A model generated the notes under the pieces. The model was given only the letters and a program-made list of their open reading frames with translations, searched no databases and was not told the DNA's origin. 40,225 nt of DNA. Source: an uncultured Candidatus Bathyarchaeia archaeon. GTDB lineage: Archaea > Thermoproteota > Bathyarchaeia > TCS64. Position numbers and translations under genes: made by a program. This document shows, one piece after another, positions 6,614 through 40,225 of the stretch. The DNA is taken from NCBI GenBank assembly GCA_964559155.1, contig CAZLHA010000003.1:1-40225 (forward strand), in the 5' to 3' direction. Position 1 is the first letter of the stretch. Each line of letters opens with the position of its first letter.

Positions 6614-6919
6614 ATGATAACTCAAGCCAAAAAATTAGGCCGATCAGCATCAAGCGCAGAAGGCCTTCGGATAATCGAAGCCCCGGACGGAGAGATCCTT
6701 GTCAAAGGCAAGCCGGGCTCTGTGACACTATCCAAGCATCGAATAGTTGAAATCCCGGACGGCTATCTGCCTGAAGATGCGGAGACTGACCCGGTGAAGG
6801 CTAAGAAAGCACTGGAGGACAGAATTAAGCGCGGTGAAATGACAAAGGCAGAGATCAGCATTCTCCGGCCAATAACTGGAGAGGTGAAGGTCACTGAGGA
6901 GCCGGTAATTAAGAAATGA
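6614..6919 (+). CDS. Hypothetical protein
   Basis: 101-aa ORF preceded by AAGGAG, co-oriented in the head module. No motif recognised. Confidence 0.5.
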   Translation: MITQAKKLGRSASSAEGLRIIEAPDGEILVKGKPGSVTLSKHRIVEIPDGYLPEDAETDPVKAKKALEDRIKRGEMTKAEISILRPITGEVKVTEEPVIKK

Positions 6920-10616: not shown

Positions 10617-11297
10617 TTGGAATTGAAATGGGATATCGGCAAAACACAAACTTTGGATAGAGTCGCCATAATCGGTGGCGGGTGGTCTTTAAAAAATAAA
10701 AACTTGGGGGAGGTCGCTAAAAACATAACGACAATTTGCGTGAATGTCGTTCATGATAGCATTAATATTGATGATCTTGATTTCGTTTTCACCGGGGATT
10801 GCGATCCTTATATGTATATGCGGGGGCAAGATGTCGAAAAGACCACCACAATCGTTACGATGTGTCCTAAAGCCAAGAATAGCGACCTCTCTTATTTTAT
10901 CCCGAGAAATTATGATAAGCTGACCGGGATAAGCGACAACCCGAAAAAACTGTGCTGGAACGAGAACTCAGGCGCTGCCGCCATCGAATTCTCTATTATT
11001 TCCGGTGCTAAAAAGATATATTTGTTCGGATTCGACATGAAGAACAGCCCGTATGGCGAATCCAGATTCCACAGAATTTATCGTGCCCGCGACCCCAAGA
11101 AATATTCATACAACAATCAGCCGAAATACAGTAAGTTTTTCGAGGGTTTCAAACAGATATCCTTGGAAGCCAAAGAGAGAGGGGTCGAGATCATCAATGC
11201 CAACACGGCATCTGCATTGGATGTGTTTGTTAAAATGCCGTTCGACGAAGCGATAGACGAGATAATCGCAAAAGAGACAGAGGAGATTGTATTATGA
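10617..11297 (+). CDS. DUF115/MptE-like (Maf-type) putative glycosyltransferase, paralog 1
   Basis: Motifs VAIIGGGWSL, NSGAAAIEFSIISGAKKIYLFGFDM and VEIINAN. Clear paralog of 11656..12357. The start may be TTG 10623, 7 nt after AGGAGA. Confidence 0.5.
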   Translation: MELKWDIGKTQTLDRVAIIGGGWSLKNKNLGEVAKNITTICVNVVHDSINIDDLDFVFTGDCDPYMYMRGQDVEKTTTIVTMCPKAKNSDLSYFIPRNYDKLTGISDNPKKLCWNENSGAAAIEFSIISGAKKIYLFGFDMKNSPYGESRFHRIYRARDPKKYSYNNQPKYSKFFEGFKQISLEAKERGVEIINANTASALDVFVKMPFDEAIDEIIAKETEEIVL

Positions 11298-11656
11298 CAC
11301 AGGTAAAGATTAAATGGCGGAAAAAAGGCGGTGGTATCCATTATAAAGACGGTAAAAAATATAACAAGGGCGATCTTCTCTGGGCATATCCGGAAGACTT
11401 GACTCCCGGGGATAAAAGTATCTTTGAAAGAGCTGACGGCGCCGCTCCCCAAGATGACAACCCTGCGGAAAAGACACAGCCCGAAGATGCTGGCCTTGAA
11501 ATCGTACACAAAGGCTTTGGCCGGTACAATGTTATTCGCAAAGATACCGAAGAGCCGATCAACAGCAGATATCTGAAAAAGGATGAAGCCCTTGCCCTGC
11601 TTGAAGATGGCGAAAAGGGAGAGGATATCGCAAAGGTTGCATTCGGAGAAGCCTGA
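11294..11656 (+). CDS. Hypothetical protein (120 aa, basic N-terminus, acidic centre)
   Basis: ATGA overlap upstream and TGATG overlap downstream. No motif recognised. Confidence 0.5.
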   Translation: MTQVKIKWRKKGGGIHYKDGKKYNKGDLLWAYPEDLTPGDKSIFERADGAAPQDDNPAEKTQPEDAGLEIVHKGFGRYNVIRKDTEEPINSRYLKKDEALALLEDGEKGEDIAKVAFGEA

Positions 11657-12357
11657 TGCAATGGAAACCAATCAGGATTTGGGACGATGATGAATGCTGG
11701 ATAATCGGTGGCGGATATAGCATAGCGGAACAATTCAATATTCCGTCAAACGTAAAGCCGAAATACCCGTATGATTATCCCGAGTTTGGCAAATATCTTG
11801 AGCCAATACATTCAAAGAAGGTTATAGCGGTCAACAATTCTATGTTTCTCGGGGATTGGATTGATGTTCTCTTTTTTGGAGACAAGTCATGGTGGACACA
11901 GCATCATTTTCAGGTCATTAAGTTCAGCGGGTTGATTGCCACCTGCGCCCCTGAGTTTCGGACAGGTTTCAAGCATATTAAATGTATTCCGAAGAACAAA
12001 AAGAAAGGAACCGGGATGACTTTGAACAAACCGCTTATAAGTTGGAACCACAATTCCGGATTCGCTGCGATCAATCTTGCATATCATCTCGGAGCCAAAA
12101 GAATTATCCTGCTTGGCTTTGATATGAACCGATGTGCAAATACAAACAATATCCATTGGCATGCAGGGCATATCGAGAAAGGCCCTAACAGGGGAAAAGA
12201 TAACTCCAAGCAGCCAAACCCGGTTTTTAATCGTCATATAAAGGGCGAGAAGGATATCGCCAGAGATGCGAAGAAAGCCGGTCTTGAAATTATCAACGCA
12301 AGCCCTGATAGCAGGTTGACAGCTTTTAAAAAAATGAATGTTAAGGAGCTTTTATGA
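11656..12357 (+). CDS. DUF115/MptE-like (Maf-type) putative glycosyltransferase, paralog 2
   Basis: Motifs CWIIGGGYSI, HNSGFAAINLAYHLGAKRIILLGFDM and LEIINAS, in the same order as in 10617..11297. Confidence 0.5.
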   Translation: MQWKPIRIWDDDECWIIGGGYSIAEQFNIPSNVKPKYPYDYPEFGKYLEPIHSKKVIAVNNSMFLGDWIDVLFFGDKSWWTQHHFQVIKFSGLIATCAPEFRTGFKHIKCIPKNKKKGTGMTLNKPLISWNHNSGFAAINLAYHLGAKRIILLGFDMNRCANTNNIHWHAGHIEKGPNRGKDNSKQPNPVFNRHIKGEKDIARDAKKAGLEIINASPDSRLTAFKKMNVKELL

Positions 12358-13136
12358 TACACTTTTGTTCCAGCTTATGCCTCAACAGTCCTTATAAATG
12401 GGCCTATGCCAAAGATTGTCAGAATTACAATGATACAGATACGTATCTCGAATTTGCGACCATGATGCTGAGAAGTGTTTATAAACATCATCCTGACAGC
12501 AGGTTTTATTTGCTCGGGATGAATCTGGATGACGCTCAGGTACAGACCTTAAAGAACGCTCATCCTCTGGTAAACATCCTTCCTTTTCATTTCGGGAAAG
12601 TAACCAATCAGCAGCATTACAAGGGGATAATAGAATGGAACCGGATCGTTTTTATTTGGCAAAAACTTGCGATGGAAAAGGTAGCTATCCCGAAAGGGGA
12701 TATTCTTGTATATCTCGACATTGATTGTCTTCTTCGTGCACCTTTGAAAATTTTCAAATACATGACAGACCTCAAGTTGGATATTGGGGTATTGAAAAGA
12801 AACGCCAAGCAATACGATAAAGAGATCAATATGGGCGTGTTGTTCATTCGGAACACTCAGCCGTCCCGGGACTTTATCTCTGCTTGGATGGACGGGCTTC
12901 CGGCCCCTGAAGGGTTACTGCCTAAACGGGCCGATAGTGAACGCACATATTCTCATTCTCAGGCGATTTTCAATCATTTGATGCAGAGTAAACAGTACAA
13001 AGGAGTCCAATTTTGGCCTTTGCCTACTCAATTCAATGATAAACGTTTGAGCAATGATTCGACGATATGGCATGGAAACCGAGGCAATAAATTTGACAGA
13101 TTAAAAGATTTCAGAAAGGAGATAAGCCAATGGTAA
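12354..13136 (+). CDS. GT-A glycosyltransferase, family 8-like (DxD)
   Basis: LVYLDIDCLL (DxD) and NMGVLFIRN fit the GT8 YLDxD / NxGV pattern. ATGA overlap with the upstream gene. Confidence 0.55.
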   Translation: MIHFCSSLCLNSPYKWAYAKDCQNYNDTDTYLEFATMMLRSVYKHHPDSRFYLLGMNLDDAQVQTLKNAHPLVNILPFHFGKVTNQQHYKGIIEWNRIVFIWQKLAMEKVAIPKGDILVYLDIDCLLRAPLKIFKYMTDLKLDIGVLKRNAKQYDKEINMGVLFIRNTQPSRDFISAWMDGLPAPEGLLPKRADSERTYSHSQAIFNHLMQSKQYKGVQFWPLPTQFNDKRLSNDSTIWHGNRGNKFDRLKDFRKEISQW

Positions 13137-13855
13137 AGAAAGATGAAGAGCTGTTTGCTGAAGATGGAAAAAGCAGATTATTTGAACCGATTTTACTCCA
13201 TACCGTCGGGCATGAAGGGTCATCCAGTGTGATGAGCATTTTAAAGACGTTCGGGCTTTTTCTGGGCACGGATCTCTCTGTCGGCAAGCGCCCGTTCTAT
13301 GAATACAAGCCGATACAGAAAATAAACAAACATATCATACAAGCTAAAGGATTTCCTTATCCATGGGATCTCTCAAAAAGAGGAGAGATATTAAAGCCTT
13401 TTCTGAGGGATTATAAATATATTCAGAAGGTAAGAGGAGACATTGCAAAGAGCATTCTCGATCAGGGTTTTCATATTAAACTTGATGTGCCGTGGGGATG
13501 GAAAGACCCAAGAACAACCATCACCCTTCCTTTCTGGATAAAAGTATTTCCCCGGTGCAAGATAATTTTCCTGAAAAGAGACAAAAAAGATGCGAAGCCG
13601 GGCTGGCATGCTTATGGTGACTGGGGCTATGACTTCTATGACGCTTATCGAAAAGAAGATATGGCGTATGTTTCGGTCGAATCGAACAACGAATATTTTG
13701 TTCTTTCGTATGACGAGCTTTCCAATAATTTCGCTGAAACGTGTAAGAAAATATGTGATTTCATGGAGGTTCCGATTTCAGATGTCAGGATAGATAAGGC
13801 AAGGAGGCTGTGGAAGCCCAAGTATGATGGTAAAATCAAAAATGTTTTTGGTTAG
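13130..13855 (+). CDS. Sulfotransferase-like P-loop protein (weaker paralog of 18230..18982)
   Basis: EPILLHTVGHEGSSSVMSIL sits at the 5'-PSB position and CKIIFLKRDKKD at the 3'-PB position. Both are collinear with the clearer motifs of 18230..18982. Confidence 0.4.
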   Translation: MVKKDEELFAEDGKSRLFEPILLHTVGHEGSSSVMSILKTFGLFLGTDLSVGKRPFYEYKPIQKINKHIIQAKGFPYPWDLSKRGEILKPFLRDYKYIQKVRGDIAKSILDQGFHIKLDVPWGWKDPRTTITLPFWIKVFPRCKIIFLKRDKKDAKPGWHAYGDWGYDFYDAYRKEDMAYVSVESNNEYFVLSYDELSNNFAETCKKICDFMEVPISDVRIDKARRLWKPKYDGKIKNVFG

Positions 13856-13858
13856 AAG

Positions 13859-14092
13859 ATGGGATTAAAAAAAACACACATAGATTTGATTGACAAATAT
13901 CTGTCAAAGAAAGCGAAGACGGCTGTTTCGTTCGGGTATCCTGAGCTGAAATGGGAAAAGGCGCCTGAATCGTATAAGTTTTTCAAGGAGCATCTTGGGC
14001 TGGAGTTGACCGTCTATGATATTAAAAATTACGGGCATGGCGAGCATTATGTTGACCTGAACAGAGCGGTGGTATATGATTCCATCAAGTGA
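13859..14092 (+). CDS. Hypothetical small protein (77 aa)
   Basis: ORF 3 nt after the upstream stop, overlapping the next gene by 17 nt. No confident motif. Confidence 0.35.
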   Translation: MGLKKTHIDLIDKYLSKKAKTAVSFGYPELKWEKAPESYKFFKEHLGLELTVYDIKNYGHGEHYVDLNRAVVYDSIK

Positions 14093-14768
14093 AAACAGCA
14101 GGATATTAATTATAACAGCGCATCCGGATGATGAATTGTTGTCTTGCGGAGGGCTGATATATCAGGAGAGCAAATTTCACAAGATTGATGTCTGTGTTGT
14201 CACTCACAAAGGAGAAAGATGGCAGGATAATTTTTTCAAGGTCTGTGATGAGCTCGGTGCAAACCGGGCGATAAGCCTTGATATCCCTCTCTGGATAAGC
14301 AAGAAAGGCCGTGTTCTATATTTTTTTGACAGGGACGAGTTTGAACTTGCCATCTCGAAGGAGATACCCGGGGATTTCCTCTATGACTATGACCTGTACT
14401 TAACCCATGGGCTTGACGGAGATATTGACAATCATCCTCATCACAAGCATTTGGCAGACATTATTACAAAGAGCTTTTTCGGCAGACAGATATGGCATTT
14501 CATGGCGTTCCCGAGGCTTGGAGTAAAGAGCCACCATCCGTTATACGCATATCATCAGAGTCTTGAATGGCAGGAGTCTTTCTTCAAGAAGGGGTTTCTC
14601 TCACCGAGACTGGCCGAGAGGGTAGACAAGGTTTATCAGCTCGATGAAACGACCGTCATCAAGAAAAAGGCCTTGAAAAAGATATACATGAAAAACAAGG
14701 ATCACGATTACAGGATGGTGAATTATCCTATCGAAATGTTCGTTAAAAATAAGGAGTGTTGCGCTTGA
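14076..14768 (+). CDS. PIG-L / LmbE family N-acetylglucosaminyl deacetylase
   Basis: Canonical RILIITAHPDDELLSCGG motif near the N-terminus, with a downstream His cluster DNHPHHKH. Confidence 0.8.
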   Translation: MIPSSENSRILIITAHPDDELLSCGGLIYQESKFHKIDVCVVTHKGERWQDNFFKVCDELGANRAISLDIPLWISKKGRVLYFFDRDEFELAISKEIPGDFLYDYDLYLTHGLDGDIDNHPHHKHLADIITKSFFGRQIWHFMAFPRLGVKSHHPLYAYHQSLEWQESFFKKGFLSPRLAERVDKVYQLDETTVIKKKALKKIYMKNKDHDYRMVNYPIEMFVKNKECCA

Positions 14769-15784
14769 TTATTGCCGCTGTCATGTATAGTCCGTTTCCT
14801 GTCAATGAAGTCCGTGGGCTATCCGGCTATGGAGGGGCCCCAAGATTTTGGGAAGGCTTTGCACATGGTCTCGATGAAGTGTGCAGGGAGAATGGCCCTC
14901 AGCACGAGCTTTGGATTTTTGCACCGGGGAAATCAACATCTGGAATCTATGCCAACAATTTTGTACGAGCAGGGGGACAACCCCTCGATCTTGATGCGTT
15001 GCTCATAAAACTCAAAGAATTAAACCCTGATATCGTTATAGGCAATCATCCTTATTGCCTGTCAGGTGAAATCGTAGGAGCTTTTCCTCATCTTTGTCGG
15101 ATCGTTGGATATAAAAAACAGCTTGGGAAATATAGATTCTTAAAAAACTTTGTTACGAACAGTTATTTTGGCAGAGCGCATTATAAAAAGAAGAATTGGC
15201 CGGTAATATATCAATGCTGTCATCCGGACGAGGTTGAATTTGTCGGGCATAAACAGGATTATTTTTTATTTATGTCGAATATCACAAGAGGGTTTAAAGA
15301 AAAGGGCCTTCTGACAGCCATTAACCTTGCGAATAAGACAGGCATAGATTTACACATAGTTGGGCCTTCGGGTGGCGACAGATCCTCTTTAAAACGCCTG
15401 AAAAAGATCATCAGCGGGAGGAAAAACATAAAGTATGTCGGGCCGCTGTCAGGTGAAGCAAAAAAGATGGAAATAGCCAATGCGAAAGCTCTGCTGTATC
15501 CGATTGATGACCAATGCAAAGAAATGGGAAGCACTACTGTAATAGAATGTGCATACTGCGGAACACCTGTCATAACCAATGATGTCGGATGCATGCCTGA
15601 ATATGTCTGTCATGGGAGAACCGGGTATCTCTGCAATAATGAAGACGAATATATCAAGGCTATAAACGATATTGAAGATATCAATCCATTCGATTGCTGC
15701 CAATGGGCCGAAACATTGTTTGACTGGCGGGACATTGCAGAAAAATACATTAATCTTTGTCAGGAGATCATAGAAAAAAATTGA
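14756..15784 (+). CDS. GT-B glycosyltransferase, family 4-like
   Basis: TTG start. C-terminal EMGSTTVIECAYCGTPVITNDVGCMPEYVCHGRTGYL matches the GT4 E-x7-E region. Confidence 0.78.
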   Translation: MLRLIIAAVMYSPFPVNEVRGLSGYGGAPRFWEGFAHGLDEVCRENGPQHELWIFAPGKSTSGIYANNFVRAGGQPLDLDALLIKLKELNPDIVIGNHPYCLSGEIVGAFPHLCRIVGYKKQLGKYRFLKNFVTNSYFGRAHYKKKNWPVIYQCCHPDEVEFVGHKQDYFLFMSNITRGFKEKGLLTAINLANKTGIDLHIVGPSGGDRSSLKRLKKIISGRKNIKYVGPLSGEAKKMEIANAKALLYPIDDQCKEMGSTTVIECAYCGTPVITNDVGCMPEYVCHGRTGYLCNNEDEYIKAINDIEDINPFDCCQWAETLFDWRDIAEKYINLCQEIIEKN

Positions 15785-16524
15785 TAACATTCGTCTGCTT
15801 CAAATGGCAATTTAATAATAAGGAATATCAACACCTTCGGAGGCTGAAACAGTTCTCCGGCAAGCATGTGAATATTCTGCACAGGATGGTGTCGAAATAT
15901 TATCGGGACAGGTTCCGGTTCGTGTGCATCACAGACGATGAAAAAGAGATAAGCAGCAAGGTCGATACATTCCCTCTATGGGATGATTACAAGAAACTCG
16001 GCGGCTGTTACTTGAGGCTGAAAATTTTCGACAGAGATTTAAACAGAGAGATAGCGGATGGATCTGATTATATCGTATGCATCGACCTTGATGCTGTTAT
16101 CGTGGATGACATCACATCATTTCTGAATGCACATAAAGGCAGGGGGGATCTTGTCACTTGGCATCGTCCCGGAGAAAATAACCCGTATTGTGGGGCGATA
16201 TGGATGATGCGACCCGGAACATGCAGTTTTTTATGGGAAGATTTTTCAGAACAGAAGATGAAAGCGATAAAGCAGGATACCGTGAAGCCGACAAAAAATC
16301 TCTTGTTGAGCAAAGGGACTGACCAAGCATGGATTAATTATAGACTTGGCGAAGATCATGATGCCTCGGTCAAGTCGTTCGGTTCGGGACTGTATGATTA
16401 TAAACGATTGAATTCAGAAGATGTTTTGCCCAATGATGCCAAGATAGTCTTTTTTAACGGCAGGCGGTATATGCCTGAGAATTTTAAACATTTAAAATGG
16501 GTCAAAGATAATTACAATGGATGA
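15757..16524 (+). CDS. GT-A-like glycosyltransferase (FVCFKW / CITDD / DLDAVIVDD family), paralog 1
   Basis: Motifs ITFVCFKW, FVCITDD and CIDLDAVIVDDI (DxD). The start may instead be TTG 15781, overlapping the upstream TGA. Confidence 0.5.
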   Translation: MSGDHRKKLITFVCFKWQFNNKEYQHLRRLKQFSGKHVNILHRMVSKYYRDRFRFVCITDDEKEISSKVDTFPLWDDYKKLGGCYLRLKIFDRDLNREIADGSDYIVCIDLDAVIVDDITSFLNAHKGRGDLVTWHRPGENNPYCGAIWMMRPGTCSFLWEDFSEQKMKAIKQDTVKPTKNLLLSKGTDQAWINYRLGEDHDASVKSFGSGLYDYKRLNSEDVLPNDAKIVFFNGRRYMPENFKHLKWVKDNYNG

Positions 16525-17122
16525 ACAATTAAATCCATGGACAGTAGAGTCTGGTCTTAAATACTGGTATAAGCACAAGGAATCACATTATATAAACCAG
16601 ATTGCCAAGAAGTATAATAAGTTCGATGTCATGAGAATTATCAAAAAACATTATGGAAAAGACAAAATCCACACTGTCGTGGACATTGCTGGCGGGAAAT
16701 ACGGCGGGTTTCTTTATTTTTTCAAAGAAGGCAAGGAGCGTTATCTTGTAGATATTCTTGCTGGTTATTTCTCCGGAGTGGATGATAAGTTAAACAAGCT
16801 ACCTGATGACGTCACGCCGATTGTTTGTGATTTTACCGGCATGCCTTTCAAAGAAAGCGTAGATATTATGTTCAGTCAGGAATCAATAGATCATTGTGTT
16901 TCGGAGGATCACTACTATGAAAGCATCGACAAAATTGTTGACGCCCTCTCACCCGGTGGCTTGCTTTTCCACGAATGGATGGTTCGCAAAGGTCAAATCG
17001 AAGGGCATTTGATTGTGCGGGATTGCACGGAGGTCATAAAAGATTTCGGGAAACTATCTGTTATTCAGAATCAACGGGTGAAAAAACGATGCTATTTGGT
17101 CTTTAAAAAAGAGGAAAAATGA
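16517..17122 (+). CDS. Class I SAM-dependent methyltransferase
   Basis: Motif I VVDIAGGKYGG, a post-I acidic residue (YLVDIL), and LSPGGLLF. Confidence 0.68.
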   Translation: MDEQLNPWTVESGLKYWYKHKESHYINQIAKKYNKFDVMRIIKKHYGKDKIHTVVDIAGGKYGGFLYFFKEGKERYLVDILAGYFSGVDDKLNKLPDDVTPIVCDFTGMPFKESVDIMFSQESIDHCVSEDHYYESIDKIVDALSPGGLLFHEWMVRKGQIEGHLIVRDCTEVIKDFGKLSVIQNQRVKKRCYLVFKKEEK

Positions 17123-17821
17123 ATGGGAAAAAAGGATAAAAAAAATGCAGTGAACGTGGTCTGTTTTTATTGGCCGGGGAAAGACCGACCAGGCTGGTCG
17201 GACGAAAGCAAAGCCCGGCAATATATTTCCACCTTCTATAGTATGTTCAAGCGAAATACAACGATACCGATAAACGTCCATTGTATTACGACTCTTGAGC
17301 CATTCACCCCGTTCATGACGTTTCATCGGCTTGAATCTCCGAGCTGGAAAGGCTGTCTGCCGAAATATTCCGTGTTCAATAAGGATCTGGGAATCAAAGG
17401 CCGGGTGTTTGCGTGTGACCTTGACGTGGTTGTTGTCGGAAACATGGACGAGATTCTTTCATACGATGGCCCTCTTGCGACTCGCTCTACTTTCGTTGGC
17501 GAGAAACTGTCCGGCGGGGATATGGTGGCTTTTAACGCCGGGTCCGGAGATTATAACTGGATATGGGATGAGTTTCGAGATGACCCGGAAGGTGTCGAGC
17601 AGTTCACCGAGGGCCGGGAGCGATGGTTATATCGGTATCATCCGGAATTAAAAGGCAAATTGGTTTATTTGCAGGATGTTTTCAAAGATCAGATTTACAG
17701 TTACAAAAGGCACATAAAACCAAGGAACACGTTACCAAAGAATGCAAGGATAGTCAGTTGTCATGGCAAGCCTAGGCCGCATGAAATACAAGAGCAATGG
17801 CGGATACAACACTGGAGATGA
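17123..17821 (+). CDS. GT-A-like glycosyltransferase, paralog 2 of 15757..16524
   Basis: Motifs VNVVCFYW, VHCITT, ACDLDVVVVGNM and ARIVSCHG, collinear with paralog 1. Confidence 0.5.
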   Translation: MGKKDKKNAVNVVCFYWPGKDRPGWSDESKARQYISTFYSMFKRNTTIPINVHCITTLEPFTPFMTFHRLESPSWKGCLPKYSVFNKDLGIKGRVFACDLDVVVVGNMDEILSYDGPLATRSTFVGEKLSGGDMVAFNAGSGDYNWIWDEFRDDPEGVEQFTEGRERWLYRYHPELKGKLVYLQDVFKDQIYSYKRHIKPRNTLPKNARIVSCHGKPRPHEIQEQWRIQHWR

Positions 17822-17822
17822 T

Positions 17823-18242
17823 ATGATATTAATAACCGGGTCAGAAGGGTATATCGGCACAAATTTGAAGAATCTCCTGCGATACCAAGGTATTGTCTTT
17901 GAAGGGATTGATAAAAAGATAGGCTATGACGTCCTGCAATATGAGGATTTTAAAGATGTAAATCTGATTGTCCATCTTGCTGCTGTTTCGGGGATACAGG
18001 CTTGTAATAAAGATTTAGACATGGCAATCCGGGATAACATTTCGACTGCGAATCATGTTTTCCGTGGGGCTTTTGCAAATAACATCCCGGTCGTTTTTAC
18101 GTCCTCTCAGGCTGCGAAAAATCCGCTCCTGAATTCATACGCTATGATGAAAAAAATTATCGAGAAGGAGGCTGAGAGGCTGAATGATATGGGGGCGAAG
18201 ATAGAGGATCTCTTCCAACCCAAAATTCAATGGAGCTTTTGA
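17823..18242 (+). CDS. Truncated NAD-dependent epimerase/dehydratase (SDR) - N-terminal Rossmann half only
   Basis: MILITGSEGYIGTNL (GxxGxxG), LAAVSG, and SSQAA...YAMMK (S...YxxxK). The ORF stops about 20 aa after the catalytic YxxxK at 139 aa, whereas extended SDR epimerases are about 300 aa. Confidence 0.6.
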   Translation: MILITGSEGYIGTNLKNLLRYQGIVFEGIDKKIGYDVLQYEDFKDVNLIVHLAAVSGIQACNKDLDMAIRDNISTANHVFRGAFANNIPVVFTSSQAAKNPLLNSYAMMKKIIEKEAERLNDMGAKIEDLFQPKIQWSF

Positions 18243-21556: not shown

Positions 21557-21883
21557 TTGGCGCTCGGAGTTTTGCACCCTGATTATTTATTAGAAAGGCT
21601 CACGTCATCTCAAATAGAAGAATGGATGGCTTATGAAATGGTCGAACCATTCGGAGAAATGAGAGATGATTTAAGAATGGCGAACCAGATGGCATTGCTT
21701 GCGAACGTAAACAGGAACAGCAAGAAGACGCCCAAAGCATTTACCGCAAAGGATTTTATGTTCGATTTCGAAAGCAGGTTTGACACAGAAGAAGACAAGC
21801 AAGCGAAGCTCAGTAACGAGTTGATTGCATCGCTTGGCAGCATGCCCGGTGTCAAGATTAAGAAAGGTGGCGAGGAGATTTAG
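21557..21883 (+). CDS. Tail assembly chaperone T-segment (expressed as a G-T fusion by -1 frameshift)
   Basis: The ORF lies in the -1 frame relative to G. LTSSQIEEWMAYEMVEPFGEMRDDLRMA resembles gpT/DUF4035-type sequences. It has no RBS of its own. Confidence 0.6.
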   Translation: MALGVLHPDYLLERLTSSQIEEWMAYEMVEPFGEMRDDLRMANQMALLANVNRNSKKTPKAFTAKDFMFDFESRFDTEEDKQAKLSNELIASLGSMPGVKIKKGGEEI

Positions 21884-21885
21884 CG

Positions 21886-24800
21886 ATGGCTTATGAACTG
21901 AGTGATATATATGTTAAAGTCGGCATGGACATGACCGAGTTCCAGAAAGGGGTCAAGCAGGTTCATAGCAGCTTTAGCAAGATGCAAAAAAATACTGCCG
22001 CTGTCACTTCAGGTTTCAAAAAATTAACCGTTGCAACGGCAGGCGCTGGATATGCTGCCTCTAAAAGCATCGGATATTTCGCTAAGTATGAGAGAAGCCT
22101 TTCGAGAATCCAGTTGTTGGGGGATGCAACAGCGGATACAATGAATACTGTTCGTGATGTCGTAAAAAAAATGGGTGCTACGACTGAGTTCAGTGCTTCT
22201 CAGGCCGCAAAGGGTATAGAGCTTTTGACAATGGGTGGTCTTGAGCTTCAGAAATCCATGGCAGCCTTACCGGAAGTGATCAACCTCGCCACAACCTCAC
22301 AGACAGACATGGCTCGTGCAGCAGACATCGCTACGAATGTTATGGGTCAGTATAGCCTTGCTGCAAATGAGCTCGTTCGTGTTAATGACGCGCTCGCAAA
22401 AGTTCAGTTGACATCGAATACCAATGTTCTTCAAGCCGCAACGGCCTTTGAATACGCAGGTACGACAGCAGCGACTATGGGCCTTGAGATAGAGGAACTT
22501 GCCGGTTGGATAGGCATCATGGCCGAAAAAGGTATAAAAGGCCAGAGAGCCGGTCGTATGTTCAGGAACGTTATGTTGAGCATGAATGACCCAACCGTAG
22601 AGGCTAAAAAAGTTTTTGAAGAATACAATGTTGAGCTTGAAAAATCGCCGGGAGTGCTGCGTCCTGTCGGCGATATAATGCAGGACATCGCCACGAAGAT
22701 TACAAACCAAGGCGACAGGATGAGAATCCTGAACAAAGAAACTGCTGACGTCAATAAAGTTTTTCAGGCCTATGCTGATGGTACGCTTCCGGATTATATC
22801 AGACAAATTGAAACGGCAGACGGGGTGAGTGCCAATTTCGCTGAGACCTTGCGGAAAGATGTAAAAGGTGAGATCGACACCTTGATTGCAACAATTGAAT
22901 CTGTCGGTATTGCCATCTGGGAAAGGTATAGTGACGAAATCGAGGAAGCGATTGAAGCTGTCGCTGATACAATTAGGAAGCATCGTCTTGACATTGTCGA
23001 TATGACAGATGGTATTGCGAATGCGATAGAAGGCATAGCTAATATTGATGTTGATAATTCTGCACTTGCAGCGATGTTCGACACAATGAAAAAGATGATG
23101 GGGCTTTTCAGCTCTTTACCTCCGGAAATCGCGGGCGCAACAGGCATGGGGCTTGTTGGCACTTTTCTTTTTGGCGCGAAGGGTGGTTTGCTGCTTGGTG
23201 GCGGTTCTTACTTGCTCAATGAGCTTGATGATTTTTTCACCGGATTAGATGCTGTCAGGCTTGGCGAGATGTCTTGGGCAGATTTTTTTGGTGATGAGGA
23301 TAAGTTTGAAGCAAAAGTAAACAAGTATAATGAGAAGCTTAAAGATGCCGCCGTAAATTTCGAGGGAGTTGTCGCCGAGCAGTTTACTGAGATAGGGGAT
23401 CTCACTCACTATATTGATGTTGCTGAAAATAAATTTGATGTTCTTTTCAATAATCTGCAAGATGCCGCTCGTATGTTCGGCATAAATTCAAAAGCTTATA
23501 ACGAGGCTGGACAGGCGCTTGAAGATTTTGGCGTCAAGCTTTACAGCTTTAAGCAGCAGAGGTTGGCGCTACGAGACGAAGAATTCATGGACCCGCAGAC
23601 GTTGGCTGATTTGGCTTACTTCAACGACCTGAATGAAAAGAGTGCTGAAAGGATAAAAGAAGTCGGGGCTGCATATAACAATACATCGGGAGAAGCGGGT
23701 GCGTGGAGCAAAGATCTCGATGAGTTAATCCTTAAATATGTCGAAGAAACAAAAACGCTGGGGATGTCAGAGCGTGAGCTGGCCCTTCATAACGCTGAAA
23801 TGAAATTGGGCACCAAAGTTTACGAAGCCAACATAAAAGAAATCAAAAAATTTATTAACGCACATTTTGATAAAGAAGCACAGCTTGAGAAAGACAATAG
23901 CGTTAAAAAGGTAATTGACGAATTAAAAAGAGAACGGGAGGCTCTTTATCAGACAGATCAGGAGCTTTACGTTTATAATAAATTAAAAGAAGCTGGAGTT
24001 GAAGCCGGATCAGAAGCCGCAGAAACAATAAAAGAAGAAGCGAACAGGGTTTTTGAATTAAAAGAAAATCTTGAAGAGTTAAGAGAGGCGGCTGAAAATT
24101 TTGATTACGGTGATTTGCCGGAAGCAATCGGCCTTGGAGGGGCTGGCGAAGATGACGATGAATATTTCAAGAAAAGAGAGGATGCTTACAAAAATTTCTT
24201 GGATGATACGCTTGACTGGGAGCTTGAAGCATTAGAAGAACGATACGATCTCGCTATAGATCATGCAAAAGAGCAGGGGGAAGATACCGCTGCAATAACT
24301 GAGCAGTATGAAAAAGAGAAAGCGGACATAGTCGCCAAGCACACCGAAAAAACAACGTCCGAGATGGAGAAAAAATGGAATCACGTTACTGAGAATATTC
24401 ATGACGCAATGGCCGATACGTTCGAGGACATGTTTGATGAAGGGCTGGATTCCTGGGAGGACTTTGCGGACTCCATCCTTGATATGATGAAATCCGCTTT
24501 TGCAGAGATGGCCGCTTATGATCTGATGATCAGCATGGGGTTCGATGTTGGAGAAGGGACGGGGCTGAGTGATTTCCTGGAGTCCAGCGGAATAAGCTCA
24601 ATGGCGTCAGAAAATAGTCTGTTGGGATCTGTCCTTGGAGGTGTCGGAGATTTGATGGGCGGACTAAAAAGTTCTTTGTCTACCCTGACTTCACAAATCT
24701 CTTCTTTTGGGGCTGTCGAGGCTGGAACGGGGGCCACAGCAGGATTGTCATTATCTGCTGTTGCAACGGCTGGTCTTACTGCCGCCTTGGTATTGTTTTC

Positions 24801-38589: not shown

Positions 38590-38618
38590 ACTATACATAC
38601 AAAATATAGTTTTGTCAA
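38590..38618 (-). promoter_or_regulatory. Near-consensus sigma70 promoter of the early leftward operon (leaderless RHH transcript predicted)
   Basis: Minus strand reads TTGACA, 17 nt (aaactatattttgtatg), TATAGT, gtcacc, then ATG. Confidence 0.5.
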
Positions 38619-38637: not shown

Positions 38638-38768
38638 AAACTCCCTCTATCAGAGATTGTAATGTCAAAACTCCCTCGTTCCGGGTCCCCGCCTTAAAAA
38701 ATGCCTCGATCAGAAAGCCGGGCGGCGGCCAAAACTCCCTCGTTCAGGCCCAAAACTCCCTCGTTCAG
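38638..38768 (+). repeat. Four direct iteron-like repeats, core AAACTCCCTC
   Basis: Copies are 38638-38653 aaactccctctatcag (variant), 38666-38681 caaaactccctcgttc, 38730-38747 and 38751-38768. The last two are both caaaactccctcgttcag, with starts 21 nt apart. GGGCGGCGG occurs twice (38719 and 38800). A GTTCAG-ttt-CTGAAC palindrome lies at about 38806-38820. Confidence 0.7.
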
Positions 38769-39041
38769 CCTCACTACTAGGGGCGGTTTTTACCGATTGG
38801 GCGGCGGTTCAGTTTCTGAACGGAAAAATCCTGAATTTGATTTATAAAATGAATTGGATTTATTGCATGAATATATAAAGCCATTCATTCAATATCAGAT
38901 TATGAAACAATAGGCGTTCAATTTTTGAATATTTTGTGCTGGTTTTTTGGCTACAGTAAAGCGCCAATACCTTATTATATAGTATGTTTTGAGCGCATCA
39001 AAAAAAACTTAAACTTTTTTGATTTTTTTTTATTTTAAAAC

Positions 39042-39070
39042 TTGACAAGTGCAATAAACCTTGATACAAG
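39042..39070 (+). promoter_or_regulatory. Putative promoter of the peptide / ORF / CRISPR unit
   Basis: TTGACA (39042-47), a 17-nt spacer, then TGaTACAAG (extended -10-like) in a very AT-rich context. Confidence 0.35.
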
Positions 39071-39120: not shown

Positions 39121-39222
39121 ATGTGGATTTTAAAGGTAACATTTTACGCAGCGTTAATCATTGGGATTTACGCCGCGCTTTTTGCAGGAGCGGCAGTAAA
39201 TTTTATATCAATTATAAACTAA
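39121..39222 (+). CDS. 33-aa hydrophobic peptide (single TM; toxin-, holin- or exclusion-like?)
   Basis: GGAGGTG lies 5 nt upstream of the ATG. Translation MWILKVTFYAALIIGIYAALFAGAAVNFISIIN. Below the ORF-track cutoff. Confidence 0.35.
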   Translation: MWILKVTFYAALIIGIYAALFAGAAVNFISIIN

Positions 39223-39327
39223 TTATTGGAACACCGGTCAAGGGGAACGCTGAACCGGGATTGAAACCGCCCAAGCCGGGCATCCAAATCAATGCCGGGA
39301 GACCGGCACAGAAAAGGAGGTAATAAA

Positions 39328-39729
39328 ATGAAATCATTAATGGAACAGATGGAATGGGATCTGTGGGACTGTATGCAGGATGAATACGGGCCCCACAGGC
39401 CCGAATTTTTTCAGTCGACTAATTTGTCGGCTGGAGAAAATTATTCGGTCACAACAAAATGGAGTCGGGATCCCTCCAGAGCAAACAATGGAGGAGAATA
39501 CTATGAGGACCGGCGCTATTTCGTCGGCCCGAATGGGTCTGTCCATAGCTACAGCAGGTCGCTCCCCTCGCGGGAGCGTGGATTGAAACAGTGGGTGGTT
39601 GATTATCAGGTCAAAGAGGCGATGTCGCTCCCCTCGCGGGAGCGTGGATTGAAACGCTTGAACTTTTTCAATCGGAACAGACTGAACATGTCGCTCCCCT
39701 CGCGGGAGCGTGGATTGAAACCAGTCTGA
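39328..39729 (+). CDS. Small ORF with a strong RBS whose reading frame runs into the CRISPR array (only 39328-39557 is non-repeat sequence)
   Basis: AAGGAGG lies 7 nt upstream of the ATG. Translation MKSLMEQMEWDLWDCMQDEYGPHRPEFFQSTNLSAGENYSVTTKWSRDPSRANNGGEYYEDRRYFVGPNGSVHSYSR. There is no stop before repeat 1. The rest (SLPSRERGLK x3) is translated repeat. Confidence 0.3.
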   Translation: MKSLMEQMEWDLWDCMQDEYGPHRPEFFQSTNLSAGENYSVTTKWSRDPSRANNGGEYYEDRRYFVGPNGSVHSYSRSLPSRERGLKQWVVDYQVKEAMSLPSRERGLKRLNFFNRNRLNMSLPSRERGLKPV

Positions 39730-39787
39730 AGCGATGGCTTATGAGACACTCTTAAAATCACTGCCCATGTGGGAGTGCGATTGAAAT
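39558..39787 (+). CRISPR. Type I-C-like CRISPR mini-array: 3 identical 32-nt repeats, 1 degenerate terminal repeat, 3 spacers (34, 34, 35 nt)
   Basis: GTCGCTCCCCTCGCGGGAGCGTGGATTGAAAC occurs at 39558-39589, 39624-39655 and 39690-39721. The degenerate ATCACTGCCCATGTGGGAGTGCGATTGAAAT lies at 39757-39787. The repeat has an internal GCTCCC/GGGAGC stem and ends in the I-C-type ATTGAAAC. The spacers are unique. Confidence 0.88.
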
Positions 39788-39867
39788 TGTGGTGTGCGCT
39801 ACAAAGACGCCCCGGTAAATTTATCCCACGAGTCAACTATGGACTGGCAGGTGCGGGGAGCTTTCTA

Positions 39868-39893
39868 TGCCGGGTTTGGCCGGCATCTTTTTT
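39868..39893 (+). terminator. Rho-independent terminator downstream of the array
   Basis: TGCCGG-gtttgg-CCGGCA (6-bp GC-rich stem) followed by TCTTTTTT. Confidence 0.5.
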
Positions 39894-40100: not shown

Positions 40101-40225
40101 ATGTTAAAAACCAAAGAAGTAGCGGGAAGTTTTCAAGGTGCCACAAAGTACGTGCTCGACAGTGAGCTCGCTTCAATCGTCAACATTTCAATGCGACTCG
40201 AGATGCCGCTGCTTTTGAAAGGAGA
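40101..40225 (+). CDS. AAA+ ATPase N-terminus (MoxR/AAA_5-like), partial; probably host chromosome
   Basis: Translation MLKTKEVAGSFQGATKYVLDSELASIVNISMRLEMPLLLKGE. The ...PLLLKGE segment is the lead-in to the Walker A (GEPGxGKT) of MoxR/CbbQ-type ATPases. The ORF runs off the window. Confidence 0.45.
   Translation, partial: MLKTKEVAGSFQGATKYVLDSELASIVNISMRLEMPLLLKG

Follow-up and report, generated by a model that had tools for sequence, protein, structure and literature searches.

Short CRISPR arrays carried by viruses were reportedly treated by Faure et al. in 2019, and recombination between phage protospacers and CRISPR spacers is said to have been described by Varble et al. (2019, Nat Microbiol) and Watson et al. 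(2018), the earlier work of this kind reportedly having been done in the laboratory on staphylococcal type III/II systems. Virus-borne mini-arrays have a leader like those of host arrays, lie between genes, carry spacers against sibling viruses and are conserved among related viruses (PMC6858448). As cited in a later preprint, recombination between a targeting spacer and the phage genome is ascribed to promiscuous phage recombinases (Varble 2019, via bioRxiv 10.1101/2020.10.09.333658). A different route is taken by the prophage PhiAP1.1 of Streptococcus pyogenes, for which a CRISPR repeat serves as attB (Varble et al., bioRxiv 10.1101/2020.10.09.333658).

The DNA analysed here, referred to as the window, is a whole NCBI contig of 40,225 bp that ends inside a MoxR-like open reading frame. 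Most of it belongs to a phage, and a short CRISPR array stands near its right end. An earlier note had offered two readings of this array: (a) a phage-borne mini-array in its own promoter–terminator unit, used against rival phages, and (b) a host array cut from its cas operon. We favour, at a probability of roughly 55%, the reading that the array is the trailer of a Desulfobacterales chromosomal type I-C array, joined to the phage at a 35-nt stretch that we call spX, with a join made in silico as the likeliest origin of the junction.

We analysed the anatomy of the array and its immediate 3' flank. The perfect 32-nt repeat (GTCGCTCCCCTCGCGGGAGCGTGGATTGAAAC) is present in three copies spaced 66 nt start to start (no matches in 100 shuffles), followed by a degenerate copy, and the features are as follows.

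39558..39589, + strand: CRISPR repeat 1, perfect, type I-C (exact match, folding)
39590..39623, + strand: spacer 1, 34 nt (target search: none)
39624..39655, + strand: CRISPR repeat 2, perfect (exact match)
39656..39689, + strand: spacer 2, 34 nt; nt 1–23 match the cut last spacer of the L023 array exactly (L023 2301–2323)
39690..39721, + strand: CRISPR repeat 3, perfect (exact match)
39722..39756, + strand: spacer 3, 35 nt (target search: none)
39757..39787, + strand: degenerate terminal (trailer-end) repeat; 23/33 aligned positions identical, hairpin kept
39867..39893, + strand: terminator-like hairpin and T-run 3' of the array (hairpin 39867–39886; terminator scan)

The layout of three perfect 32-nt repeats, spacers of 34, 34 and 35 nt and a degenerate fourth repeat is thus as the earlier note had described it, and the terminator that it placed downstream of the array was found at 39867–39893. 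In the perfect repeat a GC stem of 7 bp forms (-13 kcal/mol), with an unpaired ...GGAUUGAAAC tail after it; the length of about 32 nt, the GC-rich hairpin, the ...ATTGAAAC 3' tail and the regular spacing are those of type I-C repeats. The proposed assignment to subtype I-C is borne out by an identical repeat that adjoins Cas1c and Cas2 in the Desulfobacterales locus L023 described below, whose protospacers have TTC PAMs. As an I-C array, that of the window is ordinary, and trailer ends typically show a degenerate last repeat of the kind seen here. Scanning of about 50 window ORFs revealed no cas domain, in agreement with the statement that the window lacks cas genes, and the window gave no Rfam family at the gathering threshold. 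No AT-rich leader or promoter precedes repeat 1 in the window; a truncated coding sequence stands there instead, and positions 39200–39557 have no BLAST similarity to the leader of L023. The lack of a leader fits the array being the trailer part only. The promoter-like element that had been proposed at 39042–39070 failed a consensus scan.

We searched for targets of the three spacers. None was found in the window, in the phage variants L001 and L033, in INPHARED or in IMG/VR, databases that are incomplete (the search of INPHARED gave one 19-nt chance match, E = 5), and spacer 3 had no match in JGI metagenomes. The suggested use of these spacers against rival phages thus finds no target in these collections. 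Spacer 3 shares an exact 15-mer (AGCGATGGCTTATGA; P about 0.002–0.005) with the start of the tape-measure gene of the phage, including its ATG (21882–21896). We rejected self-targeting, because overall identity is 17/35 and a TTC PAM is absent; the 15-mer may be due to chance, or spacer 3 may have been acquired long ago from a distant relative, at the corresponding gene junction.

The phage part of the contig (1–39320) is siphovirus-like, with genes for TerL, portal, MuF, decoration and capsid proteins, a glycosyltransferase island and tail genes, including a tape measure of 1785 aa. The closest relatives of the terminase are only 48% identical, and the phage is an uncultured siphovirus. Its leftward early operon encodes a RecT protein (PF03837, 1.6e-32), and a Rad50/SbcC-like ATPase is also present. 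No integrase was found in the approximately 45 kb of available phage sequence, and no tRNA was found in the window. We considered whether the contig is circular or terminally redundant and rejected this, as its ends share no repeat and the window start does not take up the MoxR ORF again. Independent Logan contigs represent the same phage with 99.8–99.99% identity, one of which (L033) adds at least 4.8 kb of phage sequence beyond the left end of the window, where a primase-helicase, MazG and other proteins are encoded. On the right, the Logan contigs match the window up to 39320 and no further, a point immediately past the RBS AAAAGGAGG. Past this point one Logan contig ends, and another, L001, has a different ORF and no array; this ORF is pentapeptide-repeat-like by eye and is represented by a 49-aa fragment without a Pfam match. 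Since the variants part at 39320, the DNA from 39321 onward is a variable accessory slot.

Several other features of the early region were observed. Five direct copies of a sequence of about 16 nt (AAACTCCCTCGTTCAG), 21–34 nt apart in AT-rich DNA (38638–38770), separate the leftward early operon from the rightward early region and are probably operator or iteron sites; the leftward operon has an 11/12 sigma-70-like promoter at 38618–38590. The first gene of the rightward early transcript is a 33-aa hydrophobic ORF with a good RBS (39122–39223; MWILKVTFYAALIIGIYAALFAGAAVNFISIIN), in place of which database gene callers recorded an overlapping GTG-start ORF of 66–72 aa in another frame. A neighbouring protein of 178 aa has no relatives in IMG/VR.

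We then compared the DNA directly upstream of the array with its homologues. The 230 nt before repeat 1 had been described as an ORF; an ATG is indeed present at 39328, but there is no stop before the array, and the sequence is a truncated gene running into it. The relevant features are these.

39328..39557, + strand: about the first 75 codons of an early gene of the phage, from a family of about 150–160 aa, cut by repeat 1
39520..39522, + strand: TTC, the I-C PAM, directly 5' of the 35-nt stretch (same motif at four L023 protospacers)
39523..39557, + strand: spX, the 35-nt, spacer-sized stretch of phage coding DNA that abuts repeat 1 (comparison with L042)

The part of the listed ORF beyond 39557, up to 39729, is read-through of the array. 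We searched the ORF starting at 39328 against 1.8 billion representative proteins, and then by a profile search. The protein search returned mostly spurious translations of I-C arrays, plus genuine homologues of the first 75 residues, with 64–76% identity to residues 1–75 of full-length proteins of 119–155 aa and divergence at repeat 1. The profile search gave an 18-member family, typically 150–167 aa long (range 119–221), the closest members of which are 76% (P0293) and 67% (P0294) identical to the window copy. The family resides in phage early/replication operons and on two IMG/VR contigs; in one relative (L040) the order is small genes, the family gene, a PD-(D/E)XK nuclease, a single-stranded DNA-binding protein, DNA polymerase A and primase. 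The window copy matches its homologues through ...GPNGSVHSY and then enters repeat 1, where the homologues go on LVSSYEDA..., and the relatives L040–L043 have the full-length gene and no array. A full-length version of the gene from the phage variant of the window was not found in the protein collection. The ORF upstream of the array is, thus, a real phage gene broken at repeat 1, which leaves the array without a leader and halving a phage gene.

The end of the truncated gene is where the phage appears to meet the array. In its first 30 nt, spX differs from the homologous gene of L042 at wobble positions only, and its last 5 nt (AGCAG), of uncertain phage origin, agree with the 'SS' codons that come next on the assumption that two codons have been lost. 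The length of 35 nt falls within the spacer range of this array family (33–36 nt in L023). A phage segment of spacer length, flanked by a PAM, therefore lies directly against a CRISPR repeat. We infer that the host array has a fourth spacer, spX, which is identical to a phage protospacer and has another repeat 5' of it, and that phage DNA and host array are joined there. As a repeat-flanked spacer, spX was absent from the arrays fetched, and the repeat tail followed by spX gave no match in JGI metagenomes.

A repeat-like element was seen elsewhere in the early region of the phage, at 39237–39267 (GTCAAGGGGAACGCTGAACCGGGATTGAAAC), and is common to all phage variants. It starts with GTC and has an exact 10-nt match to the 3' handle of the repeat (GGATTGAAAC), a 10-mer expected 0.09 times by chance. 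Identity to the host repeat is 20/32, with only the 10-nt tail exact, and no repeat-like hairpin is formed (z = 0.43). We compared the element with RacrIC1 (PMC10651486) and judged it weak as an RNA anti-CRISPR (Racr) or solitary repeat unit (SRU), as it has neither near-full-length similarity nor the hairpin. Because the host I-C system targets the phage, a Racr/SRU-like decoy is conceivable here, though weakly supported by the sequence.

We scanned GTDB species-representative genomes for the exact repeat, which gave 29 loci in many phyla. One of them, L023, comes from an uncultured Desulfobacterales MAG (SRP141376_co1_319), in which it forms the end of contig CAYZHB010000017.1, and holds Cas1c (TIGR03640, 500 bits at a cut-off of 385; PF01867, 6e-101), Cas2, a 230-nt AT-rich leader (1376–1604) and 11 repeat copies, 10 of which are identical to the window repeat and one of which has a single mismatch. 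L023 covers the contig end only, and the cas genes there are cas1c and cas2. Of the eleventh spacer only 23 nt are present before the contig ends, and they equal the beginning of window spacer 2; the spacer before it differs between L023 and the window (spacer 1). This indicates two strain variants that have old trailer spacers in common, which is the usual pattern. The earlier note had held that an identical repeat beside a cas operon immediately beyond the window would speak against its proposal; nothing can lie beyond a complete contig, and a cas operon of this kind (cas1c–cas2) is found in the related MAG. Furthermore, of the ten complete L023 spacers four match the phage over 33/34 to 35/35 nt, each at a protospacer with a 5'-TTC PAM.

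L033, primase-helicase gene: protospacer of L023 spacer 1, 35/35, 5' TTC
6669..6702, + strand: protospacer of L023 spacer 2, 33/34, 5' TTC
14179..14212, + strand: protospacer of L023 spacer 3, 34/34, 5' TTC
11971..12005, + strand: protospacer of L023 spacer 7, 35/35, 5' TTC

Two of these host spacers target a glycosylation island of about 8 kb (10617–18242) between the capsid and tail modules, which contains two sialyltransferase-like proteins (phrog_4603), three glycosyltransferases and one nucleotide-sugar epimerase-like protein; the sites are in a sialyltransferase-like gene (11971–12005) and in an ORF without a family match (14179–14212). We also noted that contigs of the same phage diverge fully at two points, 39320/39321 and 6609/6610 (L001 1–153, L033 11379–12218), as in cassette swaps, the genes of the variants beyond 6609 being unrelated. 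Both segments swapped into the window are CRISPR-targeted, one through spX and the other through the protospacer of L023 spacer 2 (6669–6702), which hints at CRISPR-driven mosaicism of the phage variants in these two cases only.

The identical 32-nt repeat was also seen in Acidobacteriota, Planctomycetota, Spirochaetota, Alphaproteobacteria, Bacillota and Bacteroidota (L020/L024, L025/L030, L014/L017, L021), at some loci as a single copy or as only 2–4 copies. Its presence in very distant phyla implies that the I-C module is widely spread horizontally, and that the repeat alone cannot identify the host. No exact copy of the repeat occurs in 2.9 million IMG/VR contigs. An INPHARED entry, MT836695.1 ('Bacteriophage sp.', from human faeces), was rejected as a relative, as it is the end of an I-C array beside a cas3-like gene: in positions 1–600 (L032) I-C-type repeats come first, followed by a gene that by eye is cas3-like with an HD domain. 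This entry is probably bacterial DNA, or else a phage or plasmid with an I-C system, mislabelled as an ordinary phage fragment.

The right flank of the array was analysed in the same way. To the right of the array the contig never returns to phage DNA, and the MoxR-like ATPase gene announced in the earlier note is present, with an AAA/MoxR-like ORF starting at 40101.

40101..40225, + strand, runs off the end: N-terminus (41 aa) of a MoxR-like AAA ATPase, 68–88% identical to chromosomal MoxR

Its homologues are chromosomal genes of Desulfobacterota and other MAGs, near housekeeping genes, and in one locus examined (L035) a VWA-domain gene follows. Conserved synteny of the array with moxR was not seen in other genomes, and exact-protein look-ups with the chimeric ORF and the trailer ORFs for rightward extensions in Logan gave nothing beyond the window.

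According to the favoured reading, the host bacterium would be a member of the Desulfobacterales, a strain related to the L023 MAG, from a lineage immunised against the phage. The order in the cell would be cas...cas1c-cas2, an AT-rich leader, newer spacers, R-spX-R-s1-R-s2-R-s3, the degenerate repeat, the terminator and moxR. The array would be transcribed from the leader and processed by Cas5c, and the crRNAs would guide Cascade/Cas3 to TTC-flanked protospacers, several of which are in the phage. The contig would pass from phage to host at 39523–39557, a protospacer in the phage early gene and, presumably, a host spacer, where an assembler or chimeric reads may have walked across the spacer/protospacer identity and so produced a join in silico. 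If the array is a host trailer joined at spX, it is neither phage cargo nor cas-less in vivo. Reading (b) of the earlier note, a host array cut from its cas operon, thus comes closer; however, the break lies at a spacer-sized, PAM-flanked piece of phage DNA and not at a classical att site.

It is possible, and in our view the most serious alternative, that the junction is a real in vivo recombinant of the phage with the chromosomal array across the 35-bp homology, in which case the array would still be host-derived. Such a recombinant could have arisen by a single crossover that integrated the phage into the array, or it could be one of the phage–CRISPR hybrid molecules by which the transduction of CRISPR loci is promoted. 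The spacer-length, PAM-flanked anatomy of the junction is the same as for an in-silico join, and the phage encodes a RecT-type annealing protein as well as the Rad50/SbcC-like ATPase. In addition, L023 ends exactly 55 nt into the shared segment of repeat plus spacer 2, resembling a de Bruijn vertex of k = 55, which suggests that the assembly used a k above the 35 nt of the identity; 35 nt alone should not fuse paths at k = 55, so junction-spanning reads may exist, which would favour a real recombinant. We nevertheless favour an artefactual over a biological join, by inference, because phage–array hybrids should be rare relative to free phage and intact host arrays, and because other spacers of the lineage would still find their TTC-flanked protospacers in an integrated phage, leading to autoimmunity. 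The reciprocal junction, in which repeat–spX would lead into the remainder of the phage gene, was also not found. Thus, that a RecT phage of this sulfate-reducer lineage integrated into the host I-C array at a targeting spacer, or formed abundant hybrids with it, is a tentative proposal. If true, integration would deprive spX of a flanking repeat at both ends of the insertion, of the downstream repeat at one and of the upstream repeat at the other, disabling the crRNA; the spacer would be inactivated, older spacers would be uncoupled from the leader and cas genes, and phages would have a natural route to pick up and mobilise array fragments.

Two further explanations leave the array as a part or a target of the phage itself, and we consider both improbable, the second more so. 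A stable phage-borne mini-array would be a host trailer captured by the phage (perhaps via spacer homology), kept downstream of its early promoter and used with host Cas5c, Cascade and Cas3 against competitors. The array is contiguous with 39 kb of phage in the contig, it lies 3' of the early region in a slot that varies between phage variants, repeats 1–3 are intact, so that spacers 1 and 2 are predicted to be processable, and virus-borne mini-arrays are known (PMC6858448). Yet the array is leaderless, it halves a phage gene at codon 75 and so is not intergenic, its right flank is host-like, none of its spacers matches related viruses, its repeat is missing from IMG/VR, and no other phage variant or relative (L001, L040–L043) carries it; the degenerate terminal repeat and the downstream host gene argue for a chromosomal fragment and not an evolved cassette. 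Reading (a), with an array in its own promoter–terminator unit, is thus not supported, in view of the missing leader, the truncated gene and the host-like right flank, and also of spacer 2, which is common to a cas-adjacent Desulfobacterales array targeting the same phage, of the lack of spacer matches and of the variant without an array. The other explanation is integrase-mediated insertion of a prophage into a CRISPR repeat, which would split old spacers from the leader and cas genes. Prophages that use a repeat as attB have precedent (bioRxiv 10.1101/2020.10.09.333658), and phage DNA does cut the window array off from its leader side. The junction, however, is outside the repeat: repeat 1 is complete and perfect, and coding phage DNA comes before it. 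Only one element of the phage resembles the repeat (39237–39267), and it is weak and 290 nt away. Because repeat 1 is intact and no integrase was seen in the available phage sequence, a PhiAP1.1-like insertion is very unlikely.

The results allow a firm phage–host assignment, of the siphovirus to a Desulfobacterales I-C system, via four perfect or near-perfect spacers with PAM-flanked targets and a probable fifth. The host trailer joined at spX is a worked example of how, through spacer/protospacer identity, a host array can end up on a 'viral' contig and pass for a phage-borne one, and such chimeric 'viral arrays' are a trap for surveys of CRISPR in mobile elements. A phage mini-array for inter-phage warfare would have been a new example, but the evidence points elsewhere. 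The junction is also a testable candidate for natural spacer-mediated phage–CRISPR recombination.

Compared with PhiAP1.1, the window likewise has phage DNA that parts old spacers from the leader and cas genes, but its junction is at a spacer and not within a repeat, and neither an integrase nor a repeat-like attP was seen. Virus-borne mini-arrays (Medvedeva et al. 2019, PMC6858448) resemble the window in being a short, cas-less run of host-type repeats on a mostly viral contig; in contrast to them, the window array is leaderless, not intergenic, without related-virus targets, host-like in its right flank and unconserved in phage variants. With spacer–protospacer recombination the window has in common a junction at a spacer-sized, PAM-flanked stretch beside a repeat, and a RecT of the phage's own; unlike the laboratory recombinants, it presents one junction only, on a metagenome contig, which is indistinguishable from an assembly artefact. 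The closest likeness is to the canonical chromosomal I-C (Dvulg) array, as in L023: the same 32-nt repeat, a shared spacer 2, spacers of 33–36 nt, the 5'-TTC PAM and a degenerate terminal repeat, the difference being that in the window phage DNA replaces the leader-proximal part of the array and the cas genes.
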